Under the pieces are notes generated by a model. The model did not search any database. It was not told where the DNA came from and saw only the letters and a list, made by a program, of their open reading frames with translations. The translations under genes were made by a program, and so were the position numbers. A stretch of 64,000 bases of DNA from Bacillota bacterium (GTDB lineage Bacteria > Bacillota > Clostridia > Peptostreptococcales > Anaerovoracaceae). Positions 6,764 to 41,121 of this stretch are shown in pieces. The stretch spans positions 2,693 to 66,692 of the forward strand of contig JAQYCQ010000036.1 of NCBI GenBank assembly GCA_028724585.1. The letters are read 5' to 3'. Positions within the stretch are counted from its first letter, which is position 1. Each line of letters opens with the position of its first letter.

Positions 6764-7695
6764 TGAAGGGCTTGACACTGGCCAGAGAATTTTATCAGAC
6801 CTATGGACGCGAAATGCTGGAGACGCGCTTCGGCTCCTATATCAAATACATGGCTATGGGCCTTGTAGGAGAGGGATCAGAGTGCTACGGATACGATGAC
6901 GAGTATTCGAGAGACCATGACTTCGGACCGGATTTCTGCATATGGATGCCTTACGATGTCTATAAGGAGATCGGGGCTGATGTGCTGCGCGCTTACGATG
7001 AGCTTCCGGGTCAGTATCTGGGATTCGAGAGACAGCCTCAGCAGCTTAAGGTCATGAGGCGCGGTGTTATCCCGATCGAGGAATTTTACTTTAAGTATAC
7101 GGCATGCCGTGATGTCCCGGATTCTAACGTGAAATGGCTCAGGATCCCGGAAAACTTCCTCTCCATCGCTACAAACGGAGAGATCTTCGAGGACAGGCTG
7201 GGCGAGATGACGCGCATAAGAAAAGCCCTGATCGATTTCTATCCGGAGGATGTGCTGAGGAAGAAGCTTGCGGCCAGAGCCGCTATCATGGCTCAGTCGG
7301 GGCAGTATAATTACGGCCGCTGTATGAAGCGGGGCGATGCTGCCGCGGCCTATCTTTCATGCCAGAAATTCGTGGACGCTTCTCTTTCCGCGGTCTTCCT
7401 TCTCAACAGGGCCTACATTCCTTATTACAAATGGTCTTTCCGCGCGGCGGAGGATCTGAAGGCAATGAAAATGACTGTCGAAAAGATCAAGGCACTAACG
7501 GCGATCCCAGACAGGAAAGAAAACACACAGCTGAAGCTCAATATTATCGAAGACATCTGCAAGGATGTCGGCAGGGAACTCAACTCACAGGGATTTTCAA
7601 GATCGCATGACGCATTTCTGCAGATGCATCTCGAAGATATAATGTCCGGCATAAAAGATCCTATTATAAGGAGTATGCATGTGATGGCCGAATAA
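6763..7695 (+). CDS. DUF4037-type protein with a putative minimal nucleotidyltransferase fold
   Basis: The start ATG overlaps the TPR gene stop (TAATG). The N-terminus GLVGEGSECYGYDDEYSRDHDFGPDFC matches my recollection of DUF4037 and fits the GS...D.D NTase pattern. Confidence 0.65.
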   Translation: MKGLTLAREFYQTYGREMLETRFGSYIKYMAMGLVGEGSECYGYDDEYSRDHDFGPDFCIWMPYDVYKEIGADVLRAYDELPGQYLGFERQPQQLKVMRRGVIPIEEFYFKYTACRDVPDSNVKWLRIPENFLSIATNGEIFEDRLGEMTRIRKALIDFYPEDVLRKKLAARAAIMAQSGQYNYGRCMKRGDAAAAYLSCQKFVDASLSAVFLLNRAYIPYYKWSFRAAEDLKAMKMTVEKIKALTAIPDRKENTQLKLNIIEDICKDVGRELNSQGFSRSHDAFLQMHLEDIMSGIKDPIIRSMHVMAE

Positions 7696-24611: not shown

Positions 24612-25235
24612 ATGGAAATTGAGCTGAAATACGGGATACCGGACCCGGCGATCATAGACAGCCTCTGGAAAGAGGAAGTGTTCGGCGGATACGGGTCAGT
24701 AGATAAAAATACCATGATCTCTATGTCTGCGACTTACTATGACACCAGAGAAGGTGATCTGAGGAAAGCGAAAGCTGCCTTCAGGATCCGCAGAGAGGGA
24801 GACCAGCCGGTAGCTACGCTCAAATGGAATGACAGCGTGCGCGAAGGACTCTTCGAACGCGAAGAACTGAACATAAATCTGACAGACAGCGACTGCGATG
24901 CGCCGACGCTCAAGAAATTCGCGGAGAGCGAGAGCGCGGTGCCGCTTATAGAAACTGTAGGTGACAGGCCGCTCATACCTGTGATAAAGACAAACTTTAC
25001 ACGCAGGATAATGAGGATAGATACAGGTACCACGATATTTGAAGCCGATCTTGATACCGGCATCATTATAACATCAAAGAAGAACCTGGACATATGCGAG
25101 CTGGAGATCGAGCTTTATTCAGGAAGCCGAGAAGAGCTCGTGCATATCGGAGAGGATCTTGCGAAGCGCTTCGGCCTTATTCCCGGCGTAAAATCAAAGT
25201 ACCAGCGCGGGATAGAAGCGTGCGATGAAAAATAA
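24612..25235 (+). CDS. CYTH-domain protein (triphosphate tunnel metalloenzyme)
   Basis: The protein starts MEIELKY (the ExExK signature). GGGAGGAG RBS. Confidence 0.8.
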   Translation: MEIELKYGIPDPAIIDSLWKEEVFGGYGSVDKNTMISMSATYYDTREGDLRKAKAAFRIRREGDQPVATLKWNDSVREGLFEREELNINLTDSDCDAPTLKKFAESESAVPLIETVGDRPLIPVIKTNFTRRIMRIDTGTTIFEADLDTGIIITSKKNLDICELEIELYSGSREELVHIGEDLAKRFGLIPGVKSKYQRGIEACDEK

Positions 25236-31829: not shown

Positions 31830-32180
31830 ATGTTCCATTCCGTGGTTAAGTTCTTTTCGCGCTTCAGGTACATAAAAAGATTTATGCAGGACCCTGAAAC
31901 GCCAAAGAAAAAGAAATTTTTGATTATTTTTGGTATAATATATCTATTATCCCCAATTGATCTGGTCCCGGAACCGGTATTCGGAGTCGGATTTATAGAC
32001 GATATCATCCTATGGGTATTTCTCATCACATATCTGGGCGCGAGCCTGGATAAGTACGAGGAAGCAGAGCCCCTGCCGAGGAGAAGACGCCGTAAATTCG
32101 AAGGCAAAGACGTATACGAAGCCGAGGGCAGAGTAGTTGAGGATGAAGAAGAATCAGAGGGAGAGAGAAAAAGTGATTAA
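31830..32180 (+). CDS. DUF1232 (YkvA-like) membrane protein
   Basis: YLLSPIDLVPEPVFGVGFIDD. ATG 31830 lies 8 nt after GGAGGTG. Confidence 0.75.
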   Translation: MFHSVVKFFSRFRYIKRFMQDPETPKKKKFLIIFGIIYLLSPIDLVPEPVFGVGFIDDIILWVFLITYLGASLDKYEEAEPLPRRRRRKFEGKDVYEAEGRVVEDEEESEGERKSD

Positions 32181-32718
32181 CGTACCTGGTTATGAGCTGG
32201 GCGATGTACTCTTATCGGCCGAGCAGATCCACAAACGCGTAGCTGAGCTCGGAAAGCAGATATCTGCTGACTACGCGGGCAAAAAGATTACAGTAGTAGG
32301 AATCCTCAAGGGTTCTCTGGTGTTCATGTCCGACCTCATCCGTGAGATAGACGGAGATGTCGAGATAGACTTCATGGAAGTTTCGAGCTACGGCAACAGC
32401 ACGACATCCTCAGGCAATGTCCGCATAGTAAAGGACATGGATATTTCGCCGGCAGGCAAAAACATCCTTATCGTCGAGGATATAGTGGACACCGGCAATA
32501 CGCTGAAATACCTGAAGGATACGTTCCTCAAGAGCAAAAATCCAGAATCAGTAAAGATCGTTACACTCCTGGACAAGCCTGCGCGCAGAGGTGCCGACAT
32601 AGTTCCGGATTACTGCGGTTTTACTGTCGGAGACGTATTCATCGTAGGCTACGGGCTCGACTATGCCCAGCAGCTCAGACAGCTGCCGTATATCGCTTAT
32701 CTTAAGGAAAAGAAATAA
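32173..32718 (+). CDS. hpt: Hypoxanthine phosphoribosyltransferase
   Basis: GILKGS..F..DL and the PRPP loop LIVEDIVDTGNTL. I chose GTG 32173 for a typical length of 181 aa. ATG 32137 and ATG 32143 are alternatives. Confidence 0.9.
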   Translation: MINVPGYELGDVLLSAEQIHKRVAELGKQISADYAGKKITVVGILKGSLVFMSDLIREIDGDVEIDFMEVSSYGNSTTSSGNVRIVKDMDISPAGKNILIVEDIVDTGNTLKYLKDTFLKSKNPESVKIVTLLDKPARRGADIVPDYCGFTVGDVFIVGYGLDYAQQLRQLPYIAYLKEKK

Positions 32719-32818: not shown

Positions 32819-32833
32819 GCGGACGGAGTCCGC
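32819..32833. repeat. GC hairpin with a GGA triloop
   Basis: GCGGAC-GGA-GTCCGC, 11 nt outside the left inverted-repeat arm. Confidence 0.75.
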
Positions 32834-32844
32834 AATGTCCGCGC

Positions 32845-32959
32845 GTGACCCTAACACAGTGATTGCCAAGCTGAAAGCGAAGGCAGAACTGATGTAGGGT
32901 CTGTGCAAAGCCGGCCCGCGAATTTACAGCATTAGCATGAGCGGCTAGCCGGCGACTGC
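32845..32959 (+). repeat. Left arm of the 115-bp inverted repeat
   Basis: gtgaccctaacacagtgattgcc...ggctagccggcgactgc matches the reverse complement of 37849-37963 at 109/115 positions. Confidence 0.9.
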
Positions 32960-33067
32960 GGAGCGGTCGTAAATGTAAATACAGATCCGCGAAACCGGAC
33001 TGTTAATATGGTTCCTTCGATCTGAGCATACGAGTTGTATCATCTTGTTTAAGGAAGGAAAATAACT

Positions 33068-33640
33068 ATGGGTTACAAGGTTCCTGCCGGAATTTCAGGC
33101 AGACATATTCATTTAACTGAATCACAGTTCGAAAAGCTTTTCGGTAAGGGTAAAGAACTGACTGTGATGAAACCTCTTACACAGCCGAGACAGTTTGCGG
33201 CAGAAGAGAAGGTGGATATCGTAGGTCCCAGAGGTACTCTTAAAGATGTAAGGATCATAGGGCCTTACAGGGAGCACCAGCAGATAGAGCTGAGCATGAC
33301 AGACTGCTTCAACTCGGGGATAGAGCCTGTGCTCAGAGTGTCAGGTCATTACGAGGGAACTCCGGGATGCAAAGTCATAGGACCTGCGGGAGAGCTTGAC
33401 CTTGAAGACGGAGTCATGGTAAACAAGAGGCACCTGCATCTTTCCGCAAAGCAGGCTGAGGAAGCCGGTCTCAAAGACGGGCAGCTGGTAAAGATCAGAT
33501 TTGCCGGGGATCGCGGCATCGTCTTCGAAAATGTTGTAGTCAGAGCCGGAGACGGCAATGAGCTTGATTTCCACCTCGATATAGATGAAGCCAATTCGGG
33601 ATGTATCCATACCGGCGATATCGGCGAGATCGTGGAATAA
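33068..33640 (+). CDS. pduL: Phosphate propanoyltransferase / phosphotransacylase PduL
   Basis: Two PduL repeats: VPAGISGRHIHLT...QFAAEE and VNKRHLHLS...HLDIDEAN. Confidence 0.88.
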   Translation: MGYKVPAGISGRHIHLTESQFEKLFGKGKELTVMKPLTQPRQFAAEEKVDIVGPRGTLKDVRIIGPYREHQQIELSMTDCFNSGIEPVLRVSGHYEGTPGCKVIGPAGELDLEDGVMVNKRHLHLSAKQAEEAGLKDGQLVKIRFAGDRGIVFENVVVRAGDGNELDFHLDIDEANSGCIHTGDIGEIVE

Positions 33641-33669
33641 AAATAAATTATCTGGGAGTAAAATAAAAC

Positions 33670-34311
33670 ATGGAAGATTTAAATCGTTTAATCGAGTATA
33701 CTAACGTGAAATTCGGCGCTGGCATCGGCGACATCAGATCGCTTTGCACACAGGCCATCCTTCACAAGTACAGAGCGGTATGCGTAAACAGCGCGTTCGT
33801 TGAGCCTGCTTTCAAGGAGCTCAGGGAGCATCCTGAGGTTATCATCGTATCGACAGCAGGTTTCCCTCTGGGAGCAGCTTCAGCGAGAGCCAAGATCTAC
33901 GAAGCTATCGTAGCGGGCGAGGAAAACGCCAAGGAGATAGACTACGTCCTCAACATCGGTTATGTAAAGGAACGTAAGGATAAGGAAACACGCAGCGAGA
34001 TAAAGCAGATAGTCCGCAACACTATGGGACTCTGCGACGTAAAGATCATCATAGAAGCTCCGGCCCTCACAGAGGAAGAGATAGTAAGGGTAAGCACTAT
34101 CGCGGCAGAGGAAGGCGCTGCCTACATCAAGACAGCTACAGGCTTCCACGGCGCTACTACTCCGGAGATGGTATCCCTGATCAGGAGAACTGTCGGTGAC
34201 AAGTGCAAGATCAAGGCTGCCGGCGGCATCAAGACCAGCGAAGACGTAATGAAGATGGTAAGGGCAGGCGCTGATACTATCGGAACTTCAACTCTGATCG
34301 AGTTCGAGTAA
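33670..34311 (+). CDS. deoC: Deoxyribose-phosphate aldolase
   Basis: AYIKTATGF (Schiff-base Lys) and KAAGGI. Confidence 0.9.
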   Translation: MEDLNRLIEYTNVKFGAGIGDIRSLCTQAILHKYRAVCVNSAFVEPAFKELREHPEVIIVSTAGFPLGAASARAKIYEAIVAGEENAKEIDYVLNIGYVKERKDKETRSEIKQIVRNTMGLCDVKIIIEAPALTEEEIVRVSTIAAEEGAAYIKTATGFHGATTPEMVSLIRRTVGDKCKIKAAGGIKTSEDVMKMVRAGADTIGTSTLIEFE

Positions 34312-34371
34312 GATCGGACGGATATGCATGATATCCAGTCAGGATCTGGATCATTGATATTATGGAAACAT

Positions 34372-34402
34372 AAAAACCCGCGGTCTTTTGGACCGCGGGT
34401 TT
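34372..34402. terminator. Bidirectional terminator between deoC and the AbrB-family gene
   Basis: AAACCCGCGGTC-ttttg-GACCGCGGGTTT, with a T-run on the - strand. Confidence 0.75.
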
Positions 34403-34457
34403 CTGCATATCAGCCGCTGGATAAAGCCAGCCGGCGTCTATGAAATTTTCAGCTGAA

Positions 34458-34706
34458 CTAGAGCTCTTCGTTCTTGAGCTCGGCGATGCAGTTAGCGCAT
34501 ACATTCTTGCCGTGGATGACACGGACGTCTTTTGCATTTCCGCAGAAGATGCATGCAGGCTCGTACTTCTTGAGCATGATATAATCGCCGTCTACAAAGA
34601 TCTCGATAGGGTCGTGGATGTTGATGTTGAGGTTTCGTCTGAGCTCGATAGGAAGTACGATTCTGCCGAGTTCATCGACTTTTCTTACTATACCAGTTGC
34701 TTTCAC
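34458..34706 (-). CDS. AbrB/SpoVT-family DNA-binding protein with a C-terminal Cys-rich tail
   Basis: The N-terminus MKATGIVRKVDELGRIVLPIELRR is the swapped-hairpin AbrB fold signature. The tail carries CIFCG...CANC. GTG start after GGAGA. Confidence 0.88.
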   Translation of the reverse strand: MKATGIVRKVDELGRIVLPIELRRNLNINIHDPIEIFVDGDYIMLKKYEPACIFCGNAKDVRVIHGKNVCANCIAELKNEEL

Positions 34707-34820
34707 AGTTGATCTCCTTTAAATTCTATCTAATTGCAAGATTGATATAAGTCATAGGTTAAAATATATGATCCTTCTCAGGATTAACCCATTATATGTA
34801 ATAAATTAACCTTAGTCAAG

Positions 34821-35141
34821 TCATTTTGTGCCAAATAATTGTTTAATCGCAACCACAGCATTTATGAAGCTGACTAATGCTTTTACAGTGCTTTTGTTGT
34901 TTTTTATGAATTCGGTCATGTCTTCTGTGCTGTCCATGATGGATGTAACAGCGTCCTCGGCGCCTGAAGCGGCGTTGGCAGCCATACCAGTCAGCTGGCC
35001 GGCGTCCTCAGTGATCTTCTGAACGTTCTTCAGCGTCGGGAGAAGAGCCCTTACCACGCGTATGAGATATATCAGAAGCAGTATGACGCATATGCCGATG
35101 ATCAGAAGCAGCCCATCCTTTAGAGTTAAAGCTGTGTCCAT
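34821..35141 (-). CDS. DUF948-like small membrane-anchored protein
   Basis: One N-terminal TM helix followed by a helical Ala-rich segment, 106 aa. Confidence 0.6.
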   Translation of the reverse strand: MDTALTLKDGLLLIIGICVILLLIYLIRVVRALLPTLKNVQKITEDAGQLTGMAANAASGAEDAVTSIMDSTEDMTEFIKNNKSTVKALVSFINAVVAIKQLFGTK

Positions 35142-35444
35142 GTAATGATAAACTCCTCATTCAGCTGAAAGAAACAGGTTCTGCTTTTAAAAATTTAATA
35201 TAATTATCATAAATTAATTAAAACACATTTTTGGATATTTTTCAAGAAAACAGGGAAAAGATACACTTTTCTGCAAGTTAGATTTCGGTAAATGCGCATA
35301 TTGTTATGTATAGCCGATTGATGTATAATAGATGAACGATTGGACCAAGAAAAATTCGGCTGGATTAAGAGAACAGCCGGTATCGAAAATGATGATCGCG
35401 GCGGCCGGCCGGTCGTGCGTTTTTATATTTACGGAGGGATTAAG

Positions 35445-36716
35445 TTGGCAAAATTTCTGGTTGAGAACAGAGGACCGCTTCACGGCGAAGTGACTATAAG
35501 CGGCTCAAAAAACTCGGTACTTCCGATCATGGCGGCTACGCTGCTGTCCGATGACGAATGTACGATACTCGACGTTCCCGCGCTCAGGGACGTGGAAGTA
35601 ATGTGCGAGATCCTGGAGAGCGTAGGGGCTACAGTTGAAAAGGATTACCCGAGCGGCAAGATCACCATCGGAGCGGGAAACAAGCTGAAGAACGAGACTC
35701 CTCCAGATCTGGTAAAGAGAATGAGAGCGTCCATCCTTACTATGGGACCTCTTCTCGCGAGGGACGGAAGCGCGAGAGCTGCCCTCCCGGGAGGCTGCGC
35801 TATAGGCGCCAGGCCTATAGACCTTCATCTCAAAGGCTTTGAGATCATGGGCGCTACTATAGATTACGAGGAAAAACAGGGATACGTTATCGCCAAGACA
35901 GACGGCAGGCTGCACGGAGGCCGCATCTATCTCGATTACCCGAGCGTAGGCGCCACAGAGAACATCATGTCCGCTGCTGCTCTGGCAGACGGTACCACTA
36001 TCATAGAAAACGTGGCTCAGGAGCCTGAGATCGTCGATCTGGCCAACTACCTCAATAAGATGGGAGCCAGAGTAAAGGGCGCGGGCACAGACGTGATCAA
36101 GATCGAAGGCGTAGAGCATCTCCACGGCACTACACACCACGTCATCCCTGACAGGATAGAGACAGGCACATTTATGGTAGCGGCAGCTATCACAAGAGGA
36201 AACGTACTGGTGAAGAACGTAGTTCCTGACCACGTAAGGCCTGTCATCGCCAAGCTGACAGAGTGCGGATGCGTAGTAGAGGAAGAGCCTGAAGGACTCA
36301 GGGTAAGAGGCGATGTCAACCAGCTGGTCGGCACAGATATAAAGACTTTACCGTATCCTGGATTCCCGACCGACATGCAGTCGCCGTTCATGGCTTTCCT
36401 GACTACTGTACACGGAGTCAGCACAGTGACAGAGACTGTATTCGAGAACAGGTACATGCATATCACAGAGCTCAACCGTATGGGAGCAGGTATCATGATA
36501 GAAGGCAAGAGCGCCATCGTTCCGGGAGACGCAAAGCTCCACGGAGCTCAGGTAGTATCCACTGACCTGAGAGCGGGAGCGGCTCTGGTACTCGCGGGCC
36601 TGACTGCCGACGGCCAGACCGAGATCGCTGAGATCCGCCATATAGAAAGAGGCTATTCAGAGTTCGCTGAAAAGCTCAAGGGCCTGGGCGCGTCTATCGA
36701 GCGTGTCGAAAACTAG
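35445..36716 (+). CDS. murA: UDP-N-acetylglucosamine 1-carboxyvinyltransferase
   Basis: TTG 35445 follows GGAGGG and gives [24 protein letters not shown], a typical MurA N-terminus. The ORF track start at 35340 would add an atypical 35 aa. Confidence 0.92.
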
Positions 36717-36747
36717 AGAACGATTCTTTTAATATAAAGATATCCGG

Positions 36748-36776
36748 CAGCCGCTGATCTCCAGCGGCTGTCTTTT
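36748..36776 (+). terminator. murA terminator
   Basis: CAGCCGCTG-atctc-CAGCGGCTG followed by tctttt. Confidence 0.7.
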
Positions 36777-36812
36777 ACTAAGTACCTTTTTACTGAGACC
36801 GAGGAAAAGATT

Positions 36813-37799
36813 ATGGGAAAGACGATCGTATATAACTACAGAGCCGATGAGGACAAGTATTTCAAGTACTACACGCCCAAGCTGGGCATAGAGCTGGTCA
36901 AGGTGCTGGAAAGGCCTGACGAGGGGAACGCCCGCCTGGCACAGGGCTGCGACCAGGTGACGGTCCTCACCGACGCCGATGTTACTGAGCCGATGATAAA
37001 GATCTACGCGGAATGCGGGGTCAAGCTCATCACCACCAGGACCATAGGCGCTGACCACATAGACATGAAGGCCGCTAAAAAGTACGGCATAGCGGTATCC
37101 CGCATAACCTATTCGCCTTACAGCGTGGCTGACTATACGATCATGCTGATGCTCATGGTGCAGAGGCACGTAAAGACCATAGTTTCCAGATACTACGGCC
37201 AGGATTACACCATCCTCGGCAGCATGGGCCAGGAGCTGCCGGGCAAAACGGTGGGCATCATAGGCGGAGGCCGTATAGGCAGGGCAGTAGCCAGGCATCT
37301 GAGAGGCTTCGACTGCAGGATCCTCATGAGCGACCACCATCCTTCTGATGAGCTGGAAGGCATAGTAGAGTACTGCGATCTCGACAGGATCATAGAGGAG
37401 AGCGATATAATCTCGCTTCACGTTCCATACACAGAAGCCAATCACCACATGATAAACGCCGACACCATCGCCCGTATGAAGGACGGAGTCATCATCATCA
37501 ATACAGCCCGTGGAGGACTGATAGACACAGGCGCCCTTATCGACGCTATAGAGAGCGGCAAGGTGGGCGGCGCCGGTCTTGACCTGGTGGAAGGCGACAG
37601 AACAGTCTACTACAGGGATTTCAAGGATCAGGTCTTCAGCTTCAGGGAAAAGGCCATACTCGACTCTTTCCCTAATGTCATCATGATGCCCCATATGGCC
37701 TTCTACACTGACCAGGTGGTAGATGACATGATCCGCTATACTCTTGAGGACTGCGTAAACTTCTTAGAGGGTAAGGAACTTCCATTCAGGCTGGTATAA
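36813..37799 (+). CDS. D-isomer-specific 2-hydroxyacid dehydrogenase (D-lactate dehydrogenase-like)
   Basis: GIIGGGRIGRAVA NAD-binding fold, ...INTARG, and MPHMAF (catalytic His). Confidence 0.85.
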   Translation: MGKTIVYNYRADEDKYFKYYTPKLGIELVKVLERPDEGNARLAQGCDQVTVLTDADVTEPMIKIYAECGVKLITTRTIGADHIDMKAAKKYGIAVSRITYSPYSVADYTIMLMLMVQRHVKTIVSRYYGQDYTILGSMGQELPGKTVGIIGGGRIGRAVARHLRGFDCRILMSDHHPSDELEGIVEYCDLDRIIEESDIISLHVPYTEANHHMINADTIARMKDGVIIINTARGGLIDTGALIDAIESGKVGGAGLDLVEGDRTVYYRDFKDQVFSFREKAILDSFPNVIMMPHMAFYTDQVVDDMIRYTLEDCVNFLEGKELPFRLV

Positions 37800-37848
37800 A
37801 AACAGGATCCCGCGACCGTTCGACCGCTCACGCGGACAGAGACGCTGA

Positions 37849-37963
37849 GCAGTCGCCGGCTAGCCGCTCATGCAGGTATTGTAAATTCGCGGGCCGGCTT
37901 TGCACAGACCCTACATCAGTTCTTCCTTCGCTTTCAGCTTGGCAATCACTGTGTTAGGGTCAC
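37849..37963 (-). repeat. Right arm of the 115-bp inverted repeat
   Basis: This is the reverse complement of 32845-32959. It has 6 mismatches, 5 of them clustered in one 7-nt patch (gcattag vs atacctg). Confidence 0.9.
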
Positions 37964-37988
37964 GGCGCGTAAACCGCCGCAGGCGTAT

Positions 37989-38003
37989 GTGAGCGGAGCT
38001 CAC
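37989..38003. repeat. GC hairpin with a GGA triloop
   Basis: GTGAGC-GGA-GCTCAC, 25 nt outside the right arm. The 14-bp palindrome gccgggcgcccggc follows it. Confidence 0.75.
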
Positions 38004-38140: not shown

Positions 38141-39532
38141 TTACTGGTCGTCGCGTTTCATAAGCATGTCAGCGATCTTGTAGATGTCGCCGGCGCCCAT
38201 TGTGATGACGATGTCTCCCGGCATAGCGTTGTTGCCGACGAAGTCAGCGATCTCTTCGAGAGTCTTGAAGTAGAAGGCTTCCTTCTCAGGCTGGTCCTTC
38301 CTTATCTCGCGGATGAGCTCCCTGGAGCTGATCTTGTAGATGTTCTTTTCGCGAGCCGCGAAGATCTCGGCCATGCAGAGGACGTCAGCGTCGCCGAAGG
38401 CTTTGGTGAACTCGTCGAAGAGGGCCAGAGTACGCGTATAGGTATGAGGCTGGAAGAGGCACCAGATCTTCTTGTGAGGCATGTTCTGGGCAGCCTTGAG
38501 GGTCGCCTTTATCTCTGTCGGGTGATGAGCGTAGTCGTCGATGATCTTGACGCCGTTGGAGGTCGTGCCGATGACGTCGAAACGTCTCTGTGTTCCGGAG
38601 AAGCCGGCGAGGACCTCGGTGATGACAGCAGGGTCTACACCGAGAGTGTGGCATGAAGCGAATGCTGCCAGAGCGTTGGCAATGTTGTGTTCGCCAGGGA
38701 TGCGCAGATGTACGTGAGCGAGGGTCTCGCCCGCCTTGACTACATCGAACTCAGGGTATCCGTTGGAATCGAACTTGATGTTCCTCGCCGCGTAAGTGCT
38801 GCTCTCGGAGAATCCGAATGTGATGATCCTCTCGTCCTTGATGCTGTTGATGATGTTGGATACGAACGGGTTGGCGTCGTAGGCGACGATGAATCCGCCC
38901 TGAGGCACCAGTCTCGCGAACTTGTCGAAGGACTGGACTATGTGGTCTATGTCCTTGAAATAGTCGAGATGGTCGGAATCTATGTTGAGGATGATCTCGA
39001 TATTAGGGCGCAGGTGGAGGAAGCTGTCCATGTATTCGCAGGCTTCTGTTACGAAGTACTGGCTGTGGCCGATCTTGGCGTTGCCGTGGAATTCAGGGAC
39101 GTTGCCGCCGATCAGGACTGTAGGGTCTGTGCCCGCCTTCTCCAGGATGAGGGATACCATAGATGTGGTAGTAGTCTTGCCGTGGGTTCCGGATACGGCT
39201 ATGCTGGTGCCGTACTCGCTCATGAGGGCGCCGAGGGCTTCAGCCCTGGAAACTACAGGGATGCCCTTTTCTTTGCCGGCCAGGATCTCCGGGTTCTCCG
39301 GGGAGACCGCTGAAGAGTAGACTACGATGTCCGCGTCTTTGACGTTGTCAGCGTCGTGGCCGATGTAGACTGTGATGCCCTGCTGCTGAAGGCGCTCGGT
39401 GGTGTCTCCTGACTTCATGTCTGAGCCGGAAACCTCGTATCCCTGTGATTTGAGGATCTCGGCTACCGCGCTGAGCCCAATGCCGCCGATGCCGATGCAG
39501 TGGACGTGCTTATATTTAGTTATATCCAGCAT
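38141..39532 (-). CDS. murC: UDP-N-acetylmuramate--L-alanine ligase
   Basis: HCIGIGGIGLSAVAE and GTHGKTTTT (Mur ligase motifs). Confidence 0.95.
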   Translation of the reverse strand: MLDITKYKHVHCIGIGGIGLSAVAEILKSQGYEVSGSDMKSGDTTERLQQQGITVYIGHDADNVKDADIVVYSSAVSPENPEILAGKEKGIPVVSRAEALGALMSEYGTSIAVSGTHGKTTTTSMVSLILEKAGTDPTVLIGGNVPEFHGNAKIGHSQYFVTEACEYMDSFLHLRPNIEIILNIDSDHLDYFKDIDHIVQSFDKFARLVPQGGFIVAYDANPFVSNIINSIKDERIITFGFSESSTYAARNIKFDSNGYPEFDVVKAGETLAHVHLRIPGEHNIANALAAFASCHTLGVDPAVITEVLAGFSGTQRRFDVIGTTSNGVKIIDDYAHHPTEIKATLKAAQNMPHKKIWCLFQPHTYTRTLALFDEFTKAFGDADVLCMAEIFAAREKNIYKISSRELIREIRKDQPEKEAFYFKTLEEIADFVGNNAMPGDIVITMGAGDIYKIADMLMKRDDQ

Positions 39533-39771: not shown

Positions 39772-40062
39772 AATCAGATTAATAAGGTAAATCCTGTGAT
39801 CAGAATTAGTAGCCTGCCTGTCAGGTGCTTCAGAGAGCCGGCGGCTGGTGTGAGCCGGTGTATCGGGGCAGTGTGAATGGATCTGTGAGGAGCTTCGGGG
39901 AAGGGCCTGAGCCTGTATACGAAGACGCGTTCCCGCGTTACAGGGAGGAGATATCGCGGTATCTTTAGGATAGCTGCTGTATCTTGCTGAGGGGAGAGCG
40001 ATCTCCCGAATAAGGGTGGCACCACGGTCTATCGTCCCTGTGACGATAGACCTTTTTGTTTT
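39772..40062 (+). promoter_or_regulatory. T-box riboswitch leader with a UGG (Trp) specifier
   Basis: GA/AGTA box (gatcagaattAGTAgcc), AG bulge cAGAGAg, distal loop gCTGGTGTGAg, and specifier loop gtGAA-TGG-A (TGG at 39878-39880). T-box sequence AATAAGGGTGGCACCACGG (40008-40026). Terminator GGTCTATCGTC-cctgt-GACGATAGACC followed by Ts. Confidence 0.85.
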
Positions 40063-40080: not shown

Positions 40081-41121
40081 ATGAAAATCAGAAAAGTCAT
40101 GGCGGTATCACTGGTCGCTGTAATGGCAATGTTCACACTCGCTGGCTGCGGAAGCACGAGCTCCGGTTCAGCTTCTTCGGACACGTCTTCCGATTCAGGC
40201 AAGACATATACTGTAGGCATCACTCAGTTCGCTGAGCACGGTTCCCTCGACAACTGCAGGAAGGGTTTCCTCAAGGGCCTCGCTGACGAAGGCATCAAAG
40301 AAGGAGACAACCTCAAGGTAGATTACCAGAACGCTCAGGCAGATACAGGCACTGCCAGCCAGATAGCCGACAGCTTAGTATCGAGCAAGGTAGACATGAT
40401 CTGCGGTATAGCTACACCGACAGCACAGAGCGCCTTCAACGCAGCTCAGAGCACTGACATACCAGTTATCTACACAGCGGTTTCAGATCCTGTAGCCGCA
40501 GGCTTCGCTGACGAAGACGGCAACAGCGTTGGAAACATCACCGGCTCTTCCGATAAGCTCCCTGTTAAGGAACAGCTGGAAATGATCAGGAAGATGATGC
40601 CGGACGCCAAGAAGATCGGTATCCTCTATACTACGAGCGAGACTAACTCAGTTTCCACTATCAAGGAATACAAGAAGCTGGCTCCGGACTACGGATTCGA
40701 GATCGTAGAAAAAGGAATCAACACCATCGCCGATGTAGACATGGCTGCTTCAGACCTGGTAACTAAGGTAGACTGCATCAGCAACCTCACAGACAATACA
40801 GTAGTAGAGTCTCTGCAGACTGTTCTCGACAAGGCTAACGCCGCAGGTATCCCTGTATTCGGATCAGAGATAGAGCAGGTAAGGAACGGCTGCGTCGCTT
40901 CTATGGGTATAGACTACACAGCACTCGGCGAAGAGACAGGCAAGATGGCAGCCAAGATCCTCAAGGGCGAAGCGACTGCCGAAGACACTAAATACATCAC
41001 TGCGTCAAAAGCGCTCCTTTATGTAAACACTGAGGCAGCCGAGAAAGTAAACCTGACTCTCGACCAGGATTACATCAAGGACGCAGCTGAGACCTTCGAC
41101 AAGATCGAAGCCAGCAAATAG
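40081..41121 (+). CDS. ABC transporter substrate-binding lipoprotein (ABC_sub_bind / PF04392-like)
   Basis: Lipobox FTLAGC-G and a Ser-rich linker. The YTVGITQFAEH..LD start is typical of this family. Confidence 0.8.
   Translation: MKIRKVMAVSLVAVMAMFTLAGCGSTSSGSASSDTSSDSGKTYTVGITQFAEHGSLDNCRKGFLKGLADEGIKEGDNLKVDYQNAQADTGTASQIADSLVSSKVDMICGIATPTAQSAFNAAQSTDIPVIYTAVSDPVAAGFADEDGNSVGNITGSSDKLPVKEQLEMIRKMMPDAKKIGILYTTSETNSVSTIKEYKKLAPDYGFEIVEKGINTIADVDMAASDLVTKVDCISNLTDNTVVESLQTVLDKANAAGIPVFGSEIEQVRNGCVASMGIDYTALGEETGKMAAKILKGEATAEDTKYITASKALLYVNTEAAEKVNLTLDQDYIKDAAETFDKIEASK

Follow-up and report, generated by a model that had tools for sequence, protein, structure and literature searches.

A long inverted repeat around murA in an Anaerovoracaceae genome as two probable copies of a structured interspersed element

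The 64,000-nucleotide stretch of DNA analyzed here (the window) lies on contig C36 of G000, a 1.77-Mb metagenome-assembled genome (MAG) of 47 contigs from the family Anaerovoracaceae, and the whole of this genome was searched. Within the window, a gene block that runs from pduL to a 2-hydroxyacid dehydrogenase gene and includes murA is bracketed by a long inverted repeat, with hpt on its left and murC on its right. It is highly probable that each arm of this repeat is one copy of a strand-specific, structured non-coding element of about 140 nt, belonging to an interspersed family of the Anaerovoracaceae and Peptostreptococcales that has expanded in this genome. In this interpretation, two nearby insertions would bracket the block as a by-product, and not as a dedicated switch. 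The features of the repeat are as follows, in window coordinates, with matches taken from a covariance model (R1) that we built from ten copies of the element.

32819-32833, + strand: GC-rich 6-bp hairpin with a GGA triloop (GCGGAC-GGA-GTCCGC), directly 5′ of the left copy
32835-32972, + strand: left copy of the structured element (left arm), R1 score 145 bits, G000:C36:35527-35664, made up of closing stem P0, hairpin H1 (P1/P2) and hairpin H2 (P3 with the GA motif)
32884: single mismatch, C against A at 37924 of the right arm, within the P2 stem
32885-32928: 44-nt identical core, the longest perfect homology tract (partner 37880-37923)
32929-32934: five-mismatch patch (partner 37874-37879), in the variable terminal loop of H2
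37836-37974, − strand: right copy of the structured element (right arm), R1 score 127 bits, C36:40528-40666
37989-38003, − strand: GC-rich 6-bp hairpin with a TCC triloop (GTGAGC-TCC-GCTCAC), 5′ of the right copy in element orientation

The original prediction for this locus, made from the sequence, described a near-identical inverted repeat of 115 bp. A repeat search both upheld and extended this, placing the arms at 32844-32965 and 37843-37964, with 122 nt of 93% complementarity and 4877 nt between them. Within this 7-kb region the runner-up inverted repeats reach only 20-25 nt at 72-85%, so the pair lies far beyond chance. Read from the outer to the inner end, the arms share an identical tract of 39 nt, one mismatch, the 44-nt core, the five-mismatch patch and a further 25-30 or so identical bases, and direct reading of both arms confirmed the predicted pattern of five clustered mismatches and one single one. 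The patch falls in the terminal loop of H2, the sequence of which differs among all family members in the alignment and consensus structure, while the single difference affects P2, where the left arm pairs UGCC with GGCA and the right arm carries a mismatch. The two triloop hairpins and the internal GACCCTA...TAGGGTC pairing that had been pointed out are all present. Both arms, with identical diagnostic differences, recur in independent assemblies from 12 metagenome samples, and the repeat pair is therefore not an assembly artefact.

The genes within and beside the block, drawn from open reading frames (ORFs), gene calls and Pfam, are listed below.

32137-32718, + strand: hpt (phosphoribosyltransferase), left outer flank
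33068-37799, + strand: the bracketed block, pduL to the dehydrogenase gene
33068-33640, + strand: pduL (PduL/PTAC by Pfam)
33670-34311, + strand: deoC (DeoC by Pfam)
34458-34706, − strand: AbrB/MazE-fold gene (Pfam on called genes)
34821-35141, − strand: ORF of 106 aa with no Pfam match
about 35415-36716, + strand: murA (Pfam MurA)
36813-37799, + strand: 2-hydroxyacid dehydrogenase gene (Pfam)
38073-38038, − strand: murC terminator, between murC and the right arm
38141-39532, − strand: murC, right outer flank

Gene calls and Pfam agree with the enclosed gene content as predicted (pduL, deoC, the AbrB gene, an unassigned ORF, murA and the dehydrogenase gene), as well as with the claim that no transposase, recombinase or integrase accompanies the block: among called genes, Pfam identified none of these within about 8 kb on either side. 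The suggestion that the genes follow a strictly co-oriented + strand order was mistaken, with abrB, the 106-aa ORF and murC all lying on the − strand. A further ORF that seems to lie downstream of the right arm was set aside as a shadow of the + strand dehydrogenase gene.

The arms are far from alone in this genome. Searches of G000 with BLAST and nhmmer, of the kind that the original prediction had called for, brought out a dispersed multi-copy family, with eight full-length copies that are 70-80% identical to the arms plus many partial ones. R1 finds 19 matches in the genome, 12 of them full length; on C36 the two arms are the only ones. The copies fall into three subfamilies, namely the arm pair, type A (one copy or more on each of contigs C19, C38, C40 and C5, with 88-92% mutual identity) and type B (three copies on C46, with others on C33, C40 and C2). 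The arms are the sole two members of their own subfamily, 93% identical to each other as against about 80% at most to any other copy. There are also short derivatives, in which the 5′ end of the element is fused to its 3′ tail, together with truncated and modular forms. By a rough gene call, 18 of the 19 matches are intergenic, and the remaining one, a partial match at C39:37867-37965, overlaps the 3′ end of a gene by about 40 nt. Orientation relative to neighboring genes is mixed, some copies being antisense and abutting convergent 3′ ends, and the neighbors of the 19 copies are functionally unrelated (ddl, an xdhC-like gene, ftsH, EamA, an XRE regulator and others). Some copies stand alone, while others form tandem or direct arrangements.

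Because the arms belong to an element scattered at least 19 times through the genome, their bracketing of the block looks incidental, with the caveat that the two of them form a two-member subfamily of their own. The original prediction regarded random scattering of many copies as evidence against a block-specific interpretation, and a scattered, multi-copy element is what we find. Of its two readings, RecA-mediated inversion of the block is taken up below; the alternative, that a non-coding element of ~115 nt happens to have one copy on each side of the block, gains support from the 19-copy family, its covarying fold and its absence from the equivalent spacers of sister species.

Several observations on individual copies may be recorded here. 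Small GC-rich hairpins with 3-4-nt loops (GGA, GAA, TCC) and varying stems stand directly 5′ of most full-length copies in G000, examples being 32819-32833 of the window and sites on contigs C38, C40, C33 and C46; copies in other genomes do not have them. Outside the window, the 25-kb contig C46 carries five copies (C46:4903-9004 and 24790-24936), with an EamA transporter gene (C46:7827-8708) lying between two direct copies, and the copy at C46:8771-8990 contains an internal insertion of ~70 nt. Beyond G000 and its relatives, an exact-pattern scan of public collections with a 19-nt core gave only chance-level single matches in unrelated genomes, and a scan with a 35-nt core returned one JGI contig that was already in hand. 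Plasmid and phage collections yielded no matches to the element, and no specific equivalent emerged from a search of the literature.

The consensus fold of the family has a closing stem, P0, and two hairpins. H1 is long and interrupted, with P1 continued by a variable tip, P2; in H2, a short outer helix is followed by a 10-bp helix that ends in CGCGAA...GUGAGCG, with tandem G-A pairs, and a variable loop. RNAalifold predicts 39 pairs from ten copies, 17 of which show compensatory changes. For a wider test we aligned 39 sequences, drawn from 20 genomes, to the covariance model and found standard pairs in 94.0% of cells as against 26-35% when the 3′ partners were slid by 1-3 columns; changes on both sides occur in 36 of the 39 pairs, and the observed values were reached in none of 500 shuffles. 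As this alignment was fitted to the model, the figures are somewhat inflated, and the margin is very large. Structure prediction on aligned arm copies, another of the checks that had been proposed, reveals a strongly covarying fold. Furthermore, the structure belongs to one strand, on account of its conserved G-U pairs and the better fold of that strand: the left arm folds at −59.9 kcal/mol (z = −4.1) and its complement at −51.0 kcal/mol (z = −2.5). The right arm folds at −47.5 kcal/mol (z = −1.4).

P0 lies outside the limits of arm identity and is kept by compensatory change, reading CCGC/GCGG on the left and ACGC/GCGT on the right. On the modeled structure, the differences between the arms appear to obey the fold, amounting to a patch in a variable loop, one weakened P2 pair and a compensated P0; they would thus sit where the fold tolerates them. 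Three unpaired motifs are conserved as well: UGCAAAG, the tandem G-A motif CGCGAA...GUGAGCG, and CGACUGC.

We considered several conventional identities for such a structure and set them aside. No known RNA family fits, since Rfam 15 gives no match over the arms at gathering score (the best permissive hit has E = 0.33 and is off-target) and none at E ≤ 0.5 over seven other element loci. A riboswitch or leader was rejected because the copies precede unrelated genes and occur in mixed orientations. A peptide gene was likewise rejected: a frame of 20-24 codons is open in several copies, its substitutions show no synonymous bias, and such a frame is trivially kept among near-identical copies.

Comparison with relatives enabled us to place the arms in time. 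Two sister species of the same genus, G004 and G001, with 88-93% amino-acid identity, share an identical gene order and orientation (lon-engB-DUF1232-hpt-pduL-deoC-abrB-orf106-murA-dehydrogenase-murC), so that the synteny comparison proposed earlier finds both of them matching the window and the window orientation can be taken as ancestral. Their spacers are too diverged for base-by-base alignment with the window. The hpt-pduL spacer is 138 nt in G004 as against 349 nt here, and the dehydrogenase-murC spacer 217 nt as against 341 nt, and R1 has no match at either orthologous spacer of G004 or G001. Since the sister spacers are shorter and without the element, both arms are species-specific insertions that followed divergence. 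As they are each other's closest relatives and the sole members of their subfamily, we infer from sequence comparison that one arm was copied locally from the other and/or that the pair was homogenized by gene conversion.

The expansion itself is sharply confined. The 19 R1 matches in G000 compare with 0-3 in four genomes of the same genus and 0-5 in related genomes. Among 41 genomes (the relatives and G000) eight are R1-positive, as are 16 of 401 genomes of the order, usually with 1-5 copies each and often in tandem. A BLAST search of 40 relatives with a type A copy found nothing.

The element plausibly moves, or moved in the past, in the manner of a non-autonomous unit, possibly by way of a folded single-stranded intermediate. 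The case for mobility is comparative, consisting of the expansion here, the absence of the element from orthologous sites in sister species, and the existence of subfamilies and truncated forms; what the sequences suggest in this way has to be set against a series of contrary observations. There are no direct repeats flanking the 12 full-length copies that could be target-site duplications, and no terminal inverted repeats in them beyond the closing stem. This stem, six base pairs at the ends of the element, varies between copies as GTCGGC/GCCGTC, GTCCGC/GCGGTC, GTCAGC/GCTGAC and GCGCGC/GCGCGC, and because it covaries in this manner the terminal complementarity is a stem and not a transposase site. 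G000 does possess elements of the IS200/IS605 type, with genes for the Y1 transposase TnpA and for TnpB, and no similarity was found between the element and the ends of these copies. Nor does the element track the transposase, for a Y1 gene occurs in 9 of 20 element-positive and in 9 of 20 element-negative genomes, and one genome (G379) has five copies of the element and no Y1 gene. Metagenome strains of this species are about 99.9% identical, and no presence/absence polymorphism among them was seen at the three loci checked, so that recent mobility is not supported. Finally, some features suit a functional RNA as well as selfish DNA, or better, namely the deeply conserved unpaired nucleotides and the location at the rumA 3′ end that recurs across three families (see below).

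An origin from IS200/IS605 ends, or as a TnpB guide RNA, was considered and rejected, given the dissimilar flanks and the lack of correlation with Y1 presence across the 40 genomes. As regards the IS200/IS605-type elements themselves, at least two distinct ones (Y1 TnpA with or without TnpB) lie at the ends of contigs C3, C6, C20, C27, C33, C41 and C46, and also at C29:16000-19997, where they evidently break the G000 assembly. Where contig C33 ends in G000, assemblies of other strains show one such insertion sequence (IS) copy beside the MFS gene, which on one contig is called in two pieces (L255, L256).

It is possible, if somewhat doubtful, that the element is primarily a functional RNA, be it a cis-acting module of an untranslated region (UTR), a small RNA or a protein-binding RNA, and not selfish DNA. 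On this view the left arm, whose two neighbors both run in its own direction, would act on the pduL-deoC or the hpt transcript. What lends this proposal weight, in addition to the very strong strand-specific covariation and the conserved unpaired motifs, is the occurrence of homologues in at least three families of the order, and in particular a set of copies with a common position. In five genomes from three families (G010, G379, G115, G028 and G029), a (uracil-5) or m5U RNA methyltransferase gene of the rumA/trmA family carries the element at its 3′ end, where the two overlap at the stop codon. The five rumA-linked loci, in each of which the overlap lies around position 1500, are:

L121 (G028)
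L123 (G029)
L124 (G010)
L152 (G379)
L164 (G115)

Translation of the five genes shows that the 5′ strand of H1, GAAGCCGTAACACTNCTT and its variants, encodes the conserved RumA C-terminus. The proteins end in ...HVEAVTLLVKE, ...HTECVTLLVRATK, ...HIEAVTLLSRAK, ...GIEDVTLLTRT and ...HVEVVTLLTKNNEA, each followed by the stop, with the general pattern ...H(V/I/T)E(A/C/D/V)VTLL.... The complementary strand of H1 and the whole of H2 come after the rumA stop codon, so the fold pairs the coding end of the gene with its 3′ UTR. The rumA-linked units are often H1-H2-H1 tandems, in which the final ~30 nt of the gene are duplicated. Because the H1 strand encodes the conserved C-terminus at all five loci, it seems that a stop-codon-spanning structure at rumA gave rise to the family, and the copies that overlap rumA are probably its oldest.

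Against a primarily functional role stand the unrelated genes beside the 19 copies in G000 and their mixed orientations, some of them antisense at convergent 3′ ends. No promoter-like or terminator-like signals were found to accompany the arms, and the right arm is antisense to the 3′ UTR of the dehydrogenase gene and lies beyond the murC terminator. Moreover, the two rumA-family genes of G000 itself are without the element. The element also shows no similarity to 23S rRNA: mimicry of this RumA substrate was considered and dropped, R1 finding nothing in the 23S rRNA of a relative and local alignments remaining within the shuffled null.

As an inverted repeat of 122 bp at 93%, the arm pair is a possible substrate for rare homologous inversion, with the window orientation being, as we suppose, both ancestral and prevailing. 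The stronger proposal is that RecA-type recombination between the arms has given rise to populations with a flipped block, which would put the dehydrogenase gene next to hpt and pduL next to murC. It does not conflict with the origin of the arms as copies of a dispersed repeat, and we consider it unlikely while taking it seriously. The minimal processing segment for RecA-type recombination is about 25-70 bp. The perfect tracts of 44 and 39 nt reach the lengths needed for homologous inversion and exceed typical minimal segments.

To address the orientation of the block, we collected contigs from many metagenomes by exact matches to the protein products of four genes (pduL, hpt, murC and the dehydrogenase gene) and mapped them to the window. 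Reference junctions were found in 12 samples altogether, hpt/left arm/pduL in eight and dehydrogenase/right arm/murC in eight. Every arm-spanning assembly contig from ENA or JGI (long-k or paired-end), along with three Logan contigs, shows these junctions, while most Logan contigs, which are built with k = 31, break off precisely where the shared k-mers have their edges, at 32873, 32899 or 37909.

Two Logan contigs from unrelated run series depart from this picture: L069 (ERR14203375, 3669 nt) and L071 (SRR17241640, 2760 nt) carry an inverted junction between hpt and the dehydrogenase gene. Both read from the dehydrogenase gene through an arm into hpt in reverse and are 99.7-99.9% identical to the window. 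Their arm combines the outer base of the left arm with the inner patch of the right, the switch falling within the 44-nt identical core, as a crossover there would be expected to leave it. The flanking single-nucleotide polymorphism (SNP) haplotypes of the two contigs differ, which makes them independent. They count against our preferred interpretation in that the window orientation may not prevail in every population.

However, both contigs come from a k = 31 de Bruijn graph, and the switch lies inside a shared stretch (84 nt, including a popped single-base bubble) that exceeds k, so that the graph is the same for both orientations. As a contig crosses this stretch only after graph simplification, a chimeric path is indistinguishable from a true recombinant. 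Against the flipped form stand also the 16 reference junctions in the 12 samples, the reference orientation of both sister species, and the lack of any reciprocal murC/pduL junction among the 23 + 23 contigs read. As a control for chimeras we turned to a second repeat pair, C46/C33, which shares 96 nt. One of its flanking proteins is not on record, and for the other every Logan contig shown starts at or just inside the element, roughly 130-190 nt from the gene on its upstream side.

Two other features of these contigs were noted. Logan contigs of several runs (L063, L064, L071, L075 and L252) start or end at 35483-35511 inside murA, which suggests a shared k-mer or a branch point between strain variants. 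In L086 (ENA ERZ27280432 k141_1448592), the last 239 nt (7293-7531), where the dehydrogenase gene would be expected, match nothing in G000 and may reflect a chimeric contig or a divergent strain.

A bolder combination of these ideas would see in the element a new kind of functional structured RNA, either catalytic or protein-binding. It would have arisen in Peptostreptococcales from the stop-codon structure of rumA mRNAs and later turned into a dispersing, multi-copy module, and the present pair would, incidentally, render the murA block naturally invertible, as hinted by the two contigs with the recombinant junction; we regard this as improbable. That the arms are recognition sites of a programmed, invertase-driven switch of the inverton or shufflon type controlling the enclosed genes is hardly credible, as the only thing to suggest it is the geometry of a long inverted repeat around a gene block, whereas no serine or tyrosine recombinase is called in the block or within about 8 kb, the supposed sites are 140-nt structured elements with 19 copies across the genome, some solo and some in tandem or direct arrangement, the enclosed genes are housekeeping genes with their own spacers, and all 12 resolved samples have the reference orientation.

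Two further points concern the annotation of the region. The start of murA varies between gene calls, the longest ORF (458 aa, with a TTG start) being longer than the public calls of 433 or 423 aa; the variable stretch covers 35340-35445 of the window, and a strain SNP at 35418 falls inside it. To the right of murC, a T-box leader (Rfam RF00230, 114.6 bits) occupies 39787-40042 on the + strand, upstream of an ABC-transporter substrate-binding gene at 40081-41121.

The element described here is multi-copy and intergenic, with a compensated fold and modular derivatives, and so answers to the description of a structured interspersed repeat. From general knowledge of these families, its nearest counterparts are ERIC/IRU of enterobacteria, BOX and RUP of pneumococcus and bcr1 of the Bacillus cereus group. 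Like them, it measures 100-200 nt, occurs in many intergenic copies in either orientation, has modular and truncated derivatives, differs sharply in copy number between close species, and has a stable predicted fold that is kept by compensatory changes. Unlike them, and with no sequence relationship to any of them, it is built from three helices, among them a closing stem that covaries and a hairpin with the GA motif, falls into three diverged subfamilies in one genome, and includes conserved copies that overlap the coding 3′ end of rumA.

Other mobile repeats offer partial parallels. Miniature inverted-repeat transposable elements (MITEs) are likewise small, non-coding and multi-copy, with insertions that are absent from sister species and inverted copies that can bracket genes, but the present element has no terminal inverted repeats or target-site duplications, and no parent IS with matching ends was found. 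With the REP/BIME/REPIN repeats (linked to RAYT, a Y1 HUH enzyme) and the IS200/IS605-derived PATEs, it shares a strand-specific fold, the lack of target-site duplication, nearby GC hairpins and a genome with resident Y1 genes. However, REPs are single hairpins of 20-40 nt where the element is a multi-helix fold of 140 nt, and it neither resembles the resident IS200/IS605 ends nor follows the distribution of the Y1 transposase.

The arrangement around murA can be compared to inversions mediated by repeats such as IS copies or rRNA operons, in which a chromosomal segment lies between two homologous copies in inverted orientation, and two assemblies do show a junction of the recombinant type. 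Here, in contrast, the homology extends over only 122 bp at 93%, and the putative inverted form is seen only in short-k contigs. With site-specific invertible segments of the Hin-Gin-Fim type the locus has the flanking inverted repeats in common, but not a nearby serine or tyrosine recombinase. The link to RumA recalls the 23S-methyl RNA motif (RF01065), also a structured RNA associated with methyltransferase genes of the rumA/trmA family. That motif, a cis-regulatory candidate, precedes its gene and has a terminator at its end. The element, on the other hand, is found at and after the stop codon, and RF01065 gave no match at any threshold.

For the inverted repeat around murA, the outcome is a mostly deflationary one: two nearby copies of a genome-wide repeat, and not a switch. 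This is relevant for annotation and for the reading of inverted repeats as invertons in general, all the more as public contigs assembled with short k can display "inversions" across repeats that are longer than k. What is new is an uncatalogued structured element, absent from Rfam 15 and with 36 of 39 pairs covarying, in a poorly studied family of gut anaerobes. Its expansion to at least 19 copies in this small genome, where relatives have 0-5, with no recognizable transposase partner, is unusual, as is the fact that its conserved copies are partly built from the coding 3′ end of rumA. If the element is selfish DNA, it represents a repeat family that has spread without such a partner; if it is active as RNA, it would constitute a new motif with RumA as a specific protein candidate.

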